Shown: piece by piece, positions 5,205-5,489 of the stretch
Layout: every line of letters begins with the position of its first letter
How positions within the stretch are numbered: the first letter of the stretch is position 1
Source: a virus
Lineage: Duplodnaviria > Heunggongvirae > Uroviricota > Caudoviricetes
DNA length: 29,517 nt
Reading direction: 5' to 3' (one strand)
Virus record (IMG/VR): IMGVR_UViG_2531839446_000026
Span: 1 to 29,517 of that record
The notes under the pieces: model-generated
Databases searched by the model: none
Told to the model about the DNA's origin: nothing
The model's input: only the letters and a program-made list of their open reading frames with translations
Made by a program: the position numbers and the translations under genes

Positions 5205-5316
5205 TTTTTTCGTTTTTGTTGGGGACAATATAGGTTGTATGAGGATAATAAAAAGTTAACGCGTACGCAAAAACTATTGTATCGTGTTAAGAGTGGTTAC
5301 TTCGCCACACAGCTTA

Positions 5317-5347
5317 AACCCGCCGTCGAGCGGGTTTTGTCGTTTCT
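5317..5347 (+). terminator. Stem-loop with U-rich tail upstream of the holin gene; putative tR'-like late-operon terminator
   Basis: aacccgc (5317-5323) pairs with gcgggtt (5330-5336) around a 6-nt loop, followed by ttttgtcgtttct. Confidence 0.4.
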
Positions 5348-5489
5348 GGGGCTGGGGATTCGTTGGTCCTGGCCTATTCCGCAGTTGTCCATCGGTTCGG
5401 CTTCTTTGACGTTTCCGCTTCTGATTTGCGGTACATGATGTTCCCTCAATTTGCACCTGCTGTATCAGCGAGGTGAGAGATAACTACAA

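Follow-up and report, generated by a model that had tools for sequence, protein, structure and literature searches.

A conserved module between a cargo cassette and the holin gene as the probable late-control site of a QuuD-like Q antiterminator

A late promoter and a terminator upstream of the holin gene are textbook biology in lambdoid phages. In the 29,517-nt stretch of viral DNA analysed here (the window), the antiterminator gene Q (2489–2836, plus strand; 115 aa from the ATG at 2489) and the first late gene are separated by 2.4 kb of low-GC DNA, which raises the question of where Q acts and whether the intervening genes leave it connected to its target. A DUF968 gene (1476–2471) lies 5′ of Q, and the other side of Q is occupied by a cargo cassette (2833–5204, minus strand; GC 28–40% vs 50–58% in the flanks) in which every ORF is on the minus strand. 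The holin gene (5490–5816, plus strand; PF05106, and holin also in the RefSeq annotation of E. coli FT130), the lysozyme gene (5820–6296) and a spanin-like gene (6280–6714) then follow. A reading of the sequence alone had placed in the 285-bp gap between the start of the NA37-like cassette gene (5204, minus strand) and the holin start at 5490 a leftward promoter for the cassette and a rightward late promoter with a tR′-like terminator, so that the cassette would part Q from the place where it acts but would not disturb this site. The gap itself is as that reading described it, according to the ORFs, the FT130 annotation and the PF05106 match.

E. coli FT130 carries the same segment as the window at 99.9% identity, and its RefSeq annotation uses the same start codons for Q (ATG at 2489) and for the NA37-like gene (ATG at 5204, minus strand). 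Within the cassette, a 406-aa gene that has no Pfam match (2833–4053, minus strand) is accompanied by the NA37-like gene, which is split by a frameshift (4073–4744 and 4767–5204, minus strand). The split arises because the homopolymer at 4786–4794 is T9 in the window and T8 in two relatives that have the gene whole (1095 nt), FT130 and S. flexneri SFBU0723, and it represents either a pseudogene or a sequencing error. The two cassette proteins gave no match in PADLOC. Q and the 406-aa gene converge, with a 4-nt overlap of their stop codons (2833–2836), and a minus-strand terminator-like hairpin (ATGCCAACATGTGTTGGCAT, 2867–2886) lies within the last 18 codons of the 406-aa gene. At the left end of the window, an IS21-type element (4–1238; the istA end, then istB, as read from the translations) adjoins DUF968; relatives have RusA and KilA-N genes at this place, and the early-right region of the window prophage therefore appears truncated. 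Further to the right, a second low-GC patch (29–42% GC), flanked by the spanin genes and a gene for an HNH endonuclease, holds a 162-aa ORF (6868–7356); Pfam gave no significant match to it, and it may be a further moron. In FT130, an IS1 element lies between the terminator described below and the holin gene (locus L003, 4595–5292), and it would part the late promoter from the lysis genes.

The window Q matches a single antiterminator family in Pfam, PF06530 (E = 1e-44). Searched against PDB as a single sequence, it found no structure at E ≤ 0.001, with Q21 appearing only at 0.004; a profile built from eight members of its subfamily recovered the Q21 structures 6P18 and 6JNX (E = 5.5e-11). By these comparisons the window Q is assigned to the Q21 family, to a QuuD-like subfamily within it and to a specificity type that we term Q1. 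Variation in this subfamily lies in the C-terminal half of Q, and the N-terminal half is conserved. A comparison with phage 82 and QuuD-type sites had been suggested from the sequence alone; the likeness to QuuD stands, but that to phage 82 does not, since the sole match is to PF06530, which Yin et al. place with Q21 and Q933W. The proper comparator is therefore the pR′ of phage 21.

Within the gap we found a module of ~105 bp (5242–5347) that is conserved across Enterobacterales. A model of this module detects one copy in the window (nhmmer, 5251–5349, E = 5.8e-31) and nothing near Q, with no match at 2837–2900. In BLAST searches, many phages and prophages match the window Q and then, as a second piece, only 5262–5338; in some of these records the Q piece and the module piece together span 660 bp with nothing between them, and in the cargo-free Stx2 phage 1720a-02 and one Stx2 prophage the block starts a few nucleotides past the Q stop. 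A search with a module 16-mer retrieved over 100 viral contigs; each of those with sufficient 5′ flank has a PF06530 Q on the same strand, 44 to ~2480 nt upstream. To avoid the bias of a DNA search, we also picked 80 loci in 80 Enterobacterales genomes by Q protein alignment alone, and in 76 of these genomes the module is downstream of Q on the same strand. Among 133 distinct arrangements, counted as distinct combinations of Q, module and distance, 121 (~91%) have cargo of 0.47–2.9 kb between the Q stop and the module, and 12 (~9%) have the module 0–46 nt past the stop. We consider it highly probable, from these comparisons, that 5242–5347 is the late-gene control module of the Q encoded at 2489–2836, the functional equivalent of pR′-qut-tR′. 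The layout, with the module upstream of the holin gene and moved away from Q by a cassette, is ordinary in lambdoid phages and, judged by these genomes, is the rule for the QuuD-like Q subfamily. The single copy in the window and its presence in 76 of the 80 genomes thus uphold the proposal of a rightward late promoter joined to a tR′-like terminator as one module, and the frequency of cargo at this place agrees with the proposal that a cassette of ~2.4 kb can separate Q from its site without disruption.

Conservation across 62 modules sampled by Q protein gives the consensus TAacGC.GTaCGCAaaaa...t..TA...TG.TAAGAGTggt.aC...G.cac....CTTAA (capitals, at least 90% conserved), followed by a variable terminator. 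Promoter prediction had been named as a check on the sequence-only reading, which could not place the −35 and −10 with confidence. A generic promoter scan stayed at chance level (13 found vs 11.8 expected), but conservation places a weak −35-like TTAACG (5256–5261, plus strand) 18 nt from a predicted late-promoter −10, TATCGT (5280–5285, plus strand). The −35 is poor, with a match at four of six positions and an 18-nt spacer; relatives of the P3 and P4 types have TTTACG or TTTACA at 16-nt spacing. In the −10, conservation among the 62 modules reaches at least 90% at T1, A2 and T6 and positions 3–5 vary, which is the signature of a −10 element. The left edge of the module is an A-rich tract, TAATAAAAA (5246–5254, plus strand), placed where the rightward promoter would have an UP element. 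Nearly all module variants, despite their differing cargo, keep an A-run before yTAACGC, and the tract may serve as such an element.

Three other placements of the rightward promoter were set aside. A −10 at 5275–5280 (TATTGT) would give a phage 21-like spacing to TAAGAG, but relatives do not keep a −10 in these columns. TGnTAAGAG is unlikely to be an extended −10 promoter in its own right, as the sixth base of its hexamer is not T and a pause element would find no room. The pair GGGACA-16-GATAAT (plus strand, 5222–5249) lies in cargo-specific DNA that is not conserved, and it overlaps the complement of the leftward −10. For the module, the K-12 DLP12 copy included, no mapped 5′ or 3′ ends were found, and the Term-seq tables contain nothing at essD or 5772xx. 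Among the module variants, all have TAnnnT at the −10 other than two identical loci of cargo-free Stx2 phages whose Q has 126 aa (L001, 3100–3116, and L002); these have CAGTAT, which points to a late promoter that is weaker or displaced in them.

From the end of the −10 onward, the module contains the invariant TGnTAAGAGTGG (5285–5296, plus strand; at least 90% conserved in the 62 modules). It holds the predicted start, placed at ~A5292 because this is 7 nt after the −10. The same block includes TAAGAG/AAGAGT (5288–5294, plus strand), which by its sequence is a candidate sigma-dependent pause element (SDPE). If transcription starts at 5292, the candidate element spans ~−4 to +3; it is only 8–9 nt past the start of the −10, vs 13 nt in phage 21, and therefore overlaps the predicted start. 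Either polymerase would pause at ~+12, with sigma re-engaging after ~9 nt of synthesis, or the invariant block has another role. Downstream, at a fitting distance, TTCG (5301–5304, plus strand; 15–16 nt after the start of the candidate SDPE) fits T-N-Y-G, the consensus for scrunched sigma-dependent pausing (bioRxiv 10.1101/2022.01.24.477500), and it argues for such pausing only weakly because G5304 and C5300 alone are at least 90% conserved among relatives. In the 1986 record of PA-2 (J02580; locus L006, 1730–1750), a CRP site is annotated on the conserved AAGAGTGG...TCACAC block of the module, and the GTG-N10-CAC symmetry of this block is kept in all variants. We did not retain a CRP site over AAGAGTGG...TCACA: the half-site spacing does not fit TGTGA-N6-TCACA, and we treat it as the same conserved block.

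The right part of the module is a tR′-like intrinsic terminator (5316–5347, plus strand), in agreement with the rightward-reading hairpin and U-rich tail that had been described from the sequence alone. It consists of a stem-loop at 5316–5337, with an 8-bp stem (AAACCCGC at 5316–5323, GCGGGTTT at 5330–5337) and the loop CGTCGA, and of the U-rich tail TGTCGTTTCT. On the reverse strand no T-run follows the stem, and the terminator therefore reads rightward only. It is the first-listed plus-strand terminator-like site in 2400–6000, a region with 10 terminator-like sites vs 2.6 ± 1.7 in shuffles. The fold of 5288–5350 is unexceptional when taken alone (−19.6 kcal/mol, z = −1.6 vs shuffles), and the U-tract of the window (UUUUGUCGUUUCU) is interrupted. 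Over 51 distinct relatives, 86% of the cells of the terminator helix are paired, vs 45–51% with slid 3′ partners, and compensatory changes occur in six of the nine terminator pairs across the 51 distinct leaders when the structure is supplied by hand. RNAalifold on the 51 leaders returned no consensus structure, because indels in the terminator break the alignment. In most of the relatives for which a crude scan detected a terminator, its hairpin ends ~45–66 nt past TAAGAGT, and the terminator sequences differ between relatives, for example AAACCTCGCTTCGGCGGGGTTT and AAACCCTGCCAGCAATGGCGGGGTTT. By this covariation, the structure of the terminator is kept as its sequence changes. The predicted leader RNA would be ~50–55 nt long. 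A 5′ hairpin in the leader, GUGGU/GCCAC, which falls on the GTG-N10-CAC symmetry, is 83% paired and shows compensatory change in none of its five pairs; an Rfam scan of 2400–6000 at E ≤ 10 gave chance-level matches only and no leader family. In Serratia prophages, full tandem copies of the module lie just after Q, five in one (L176, 4966–5708) and two in another (L180, 4966–5176), each with a palindrome, a −10, a variant of TAAAACTGAGT and a terminator. Such copies would multiply either the short leader RNA or the Q loading sites.

How could Q recognise this promoter? The promoter spacer contains the palindrome cGCGTACGCa (GCGTACGC) followed by the A-tract AAAA (together 5260–5273), a candidate Q-binding element (QBE). 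We typed Q by its C-terminal half across the 133 distinct arrangements and found that the type of the palindrome equals that of Q in all 133, with no cross-type pair, a correlation among related sequences. Q1, the window type, occurs with GCGTACGC (62 cases); Q2 with GCGGnCCGC (30 cases, plus 4 with one mismatch), the P2 palindrome being GCGGTCCGC; Q3, the type of QuuD, with ACGTACGT (28 cases); Q4 with TTTACAATCGTAAA (4 cases); and Q5 with TGTTATAACA or GTAATTAC (4 cases). In the form of inverted repeats, the elements read TGCGTACGCA, TGCGGnCCGCA, TTTACGTACGTAAA and TGTTATAACA. The match goes beyond linkage, because DNA downstream of the module is shared among types and 0.5–2.9 kb of unrelated cargo lies between Q and the palindrome. 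Indeed, the DNA 75–140 nt downstream of the module is common to several Q types: one cluster of such DNA contains 12 Q2, 9 Q1, 3 Q4 and 3 Q5 cases, and another contains 8 Q1 and 8 Q2. That the palindrome type tracks the Q type while the downstream DNA is shuffled points to 5260–5273 as the probable Q-binding element.

The palindrome also takes part in the predicted leftward promoter. On the minus strand, a conserved −35, TTGCGT (5265–5270), predicted in a relaxed hexamer scan, lies within the palindrome and 17 nt from the predicted −10 of the cassette promoter, TATCCT (5242–5247); the predicted start, at ~5234–5236, is some 31 nt before the NA37 ATG. A −10-like hexamer is found 16–18 nt (mostly 17) to the left of TTGCGT in 42 of 54 unrelated cargo-proximal sequence clusters, and TAnnnT occurs exactly at the offset of the leftward −10 in 60% of 58 P1-type contexts, vs a background of ~3%. 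The enrichment supports the existence of a leftward promoter that is built into the module and drives the cassette, as the sequence-only reading had supposed. The palindrome could double as the −35 of this promoter, and its symmetry would be partly explained thereby. In K-12, the promoter of nmpC is reported to lie within 199–210 nt of the nmpC start codon and at least 170 nt from the module (PMC11677980); DLP12 of K-12 is of type Q3, and the built-in leftward promoter therefore seems to be P1-specific.

The cargo found between Q and the module comprises 141 distinct regions and 62 protein clusters, and in 133 of the 141 regions all ORFs of at least 80 aa are antisense. The C-termini of Q vary with the cargo, which places the left junction within the last ~10 codons of Q. 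Porins and PDC-M53A-like and PDC-S33-like proteins are among the cargo. NA37-like proteins recur in pairs with a partner of ~400 aa that has a C-terminal membrane anchor (for example in L162, L166 and L152), and these pairs resemble the window cassette. Most of the cargo tested with PADLOC gave no match.

The location of the module invites a different reading of the hairpin, in which the actual late promoter is to be sought immediately past Q or inside the cassette and 5316–5337 is a mere insulator against read-through or antisense transcription reaching the lysis genes. The pR′ of textbook lambdoid phages does abut Q, and promoter-like hexamers occur on the plus strand within the cassette, for example at 3064–3093, 3329–3357 and 3939–3968. 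Such matches are, however, as frequent as chance predicts for AT-rich DNA, and the last codons of Q are cargo-specific, with a stop that overlaps the convergent cargo stop, so that there is no conserved DNA past Q. The module model finds nothing in this place, and in cargo-free relatives the DNA that abuts Q is the module itself. We regard an insulator role for the hairpin as very improbable. Another reading concerns the product, and holds that the module is chiefly a constitutive small-RNA gene, making a ~50-nt trans-acting transcript like StxS, with Q antitermination secondary or absent. In its favour, ~30 nt past the −10 are conserved far beyond the need of a mere terminated leader, the two and five tandem promoter-leader-terminator copies in Serratia prophages multiply RNA output, and StxS is a precedent for a leader of this kind acting as a regulatory RNA (PMC7547250). 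This reading leaves unexplained both the strict match of Q type to palindrome type and the constant location between Q and the late genes; furthermore, no Rfam family is matched and the proposed 5′ hairpin lacks compensatory pairs. It seems unlikely to us as the chief role of the module, and it is compatible with, rather than exclusive of, late control.

If the module does control the late genes, the palindrome might still not be the Q site: it might consist of two back-to-back −35 hexamers or be the operator of another regulator, with Q recognising, for example, the invariant TAAGAGTGG block. Consistent with this, the arms of the P3–P6 palindromes are −35-like on both strands (TTTACG/TTTACG, TTGTGT/TTGTTA, TTGCGT/TTGTAA), and the minus-strand arm of P1, TTGCGT, pairs with a −10 at 17 nt. 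A −35 role, however, gives no cause for the palindrome class to switch with the C-terminal class of Q across unrelated cargo while the neighbouring DNA recombines freely. Type specificity is likewise beyond the reach of an invariant block, and no other regulator gene is consistently linked, the cargo falling into 62 protein clusters. We thus find it improbable that Q acts elsewhere than at the palindrome, and keep 5260–5273 as the probable QBE. A more elaborate possibility, which we put forward as speculation, is that Q binds as a symmetric dimer to a type-specific palindrome common to two back-to-back promoters, where it would both be loaded at the late promoter (with the sigma-pause element over the start and a pause at ~+12, at the brink of promoter escape) and occlude the −35 of the antisense cargo promoter. 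If this were true, the prophage would switch from expression of lysogenic-conversion or defence cargo to lysis, and the module, as a portable two-way switch, would also mark a major cargo insertion hotspot.

Taking 5242–5347 as the late-control module with the palindrome as its Q site, we propose that sigma-70 RNA polymerase would start at ~5292, using the weak −35 TTAACG, the upstream A-tract and the −10 TATCGT, and that without Q it would make a leader of ~50 nt and stop at the hairpin at 5316–5337. After induction, Q would bind the type-specific palindrome GCGTACGC and A-tract in the promoter spacer, and would then engage polymerase held early by sigma on the invariant TGnTAAGAGTGG. Q would travel with polymerase past the terminator into the holin, lysozyme and spanin genes. 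The 2.4-kb cassette between Q and its site would be of no consequence, because Q is diffusible, and the leftward promoter of the same module (−35 TTGCGT within the palindrome, −10 TATCCT) would drive the cassette. The start site, Q binding, pausing, terminator efficiency and readthrough are here inferred for the module, the mechanism by analogy with phage 21 and lambda.

For the window, these results settle the likeliest site of late transcription control, with a cassette that would leave Q connected to its target. They also define by sequence the putative late promoter, terminator and Q site of a Q subfamily that is widespread and includes QuuD of K-12. Q specificity in the subfamily falls into five or more classes, with a separate palindrome for each, and these are ready for swap experiments on Q–DNA recognition. 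Furthermore, the junction between Q and its promoter is a useful place to seek prophage-borne defence or conversion genes. A literature search that covered full text and included the motif found no paper defining the target of QuuD-like Q, the motif or the hotspot.

In phage 21, Q21 loads at a QBE that adjoins a sigma-dependent pause element (Yin et al.). The annotation of pR′21 (OL657228) has the −35 TTGACA 7 nt past the Q21 stop, the QBE ATTGAGCA AATGAGCA in the spacer, then the −10, the start, the SDPE TAAGCTG at +2 to +8 and the end of the terminator at ~+50. The Q proteins belong to the same family (PF06530), the window Q being a distant homologue of Q21, and the elements follow in the same order as the predicted ones of the window: −35, Q-specific spacer element, −10, TAAG-type element, terminator at ~50 nt and lysis genes. 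The −35 just past the Q stop recalls the cargo-free relatives of the window module, TAAGCTG resembles the invariant TGnTAAGAGTGG, and the distance from QBE to SDPE is 12–13 bp, compared with 14–15 bp from the A-tract to TAAGAG in the window. The differences are nonetheless considerable. Q21 has 162 aa, vs 115–127 aa in the window subfamily, with ~30% identity over 80 residues (an estimate from the alignment); its QBE is formed by two direct 8-bp repeats, whereas the candidate QBE of the window is a palindrome of 8–14 bp with an A/T tract; the pause element is further from the −10, by the distances given above; and, unlike in the window, no cargo lies between Q and the promoter. The window module has no detectable DNA homology to pR′21, and it is therefore a parallel member of the system and not a copy.

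Lambda resembles the window in having a short terminated leader and a late promoter upstream of the holin gene that is active without Q, as predicted for the window; its Q belongs to an unrelated family, PF03589, to which the window Q has no match. The lambda initial transcribed sequence, AACGAT-GGG-TTAA-TTCG, resembles AAGAGT-GG-TTAC-TTCG of the window. The lambda leader is 194 nt long, and its pause element begins at +1, ~12 nt past the start of the −10. StxS (Q933W type) is also a short, tR′-terminated late-promoter RNA like that predicted here, with an unrelated sequence; its precursor of 258 nt, made from a late promoter under Q control and ended at tR′, is processed to 74 nt (PMC7547250). 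The module was rejected as the StxS/pR′ of Stx phages, since the StxS leader has 258 nt and is of the Q933W type, and the Stx phages that match the module have a different, 126-aa Q.

DLP12 of E. coli K-12 and PA-2 share both the architecture and the module with the window, in the order quuD, antisense nmpC/lc porin gene, essD, and both are long-known examples of a porin gene lying between Q and the lysis genes. The K-12 module (L209, 4696–4779; NC_000913.3, ~577,195–577,278) lies between the antisense porin pseudogene and essD. QuuD is of specificity type Q3, with the palindrome TTTACGTACGTAAA. DLP12 and PA-2 thus differ from the window in the type of their palindrome and in their cargo, which is a porin there and the NA37-like and 406-aa proteins here.
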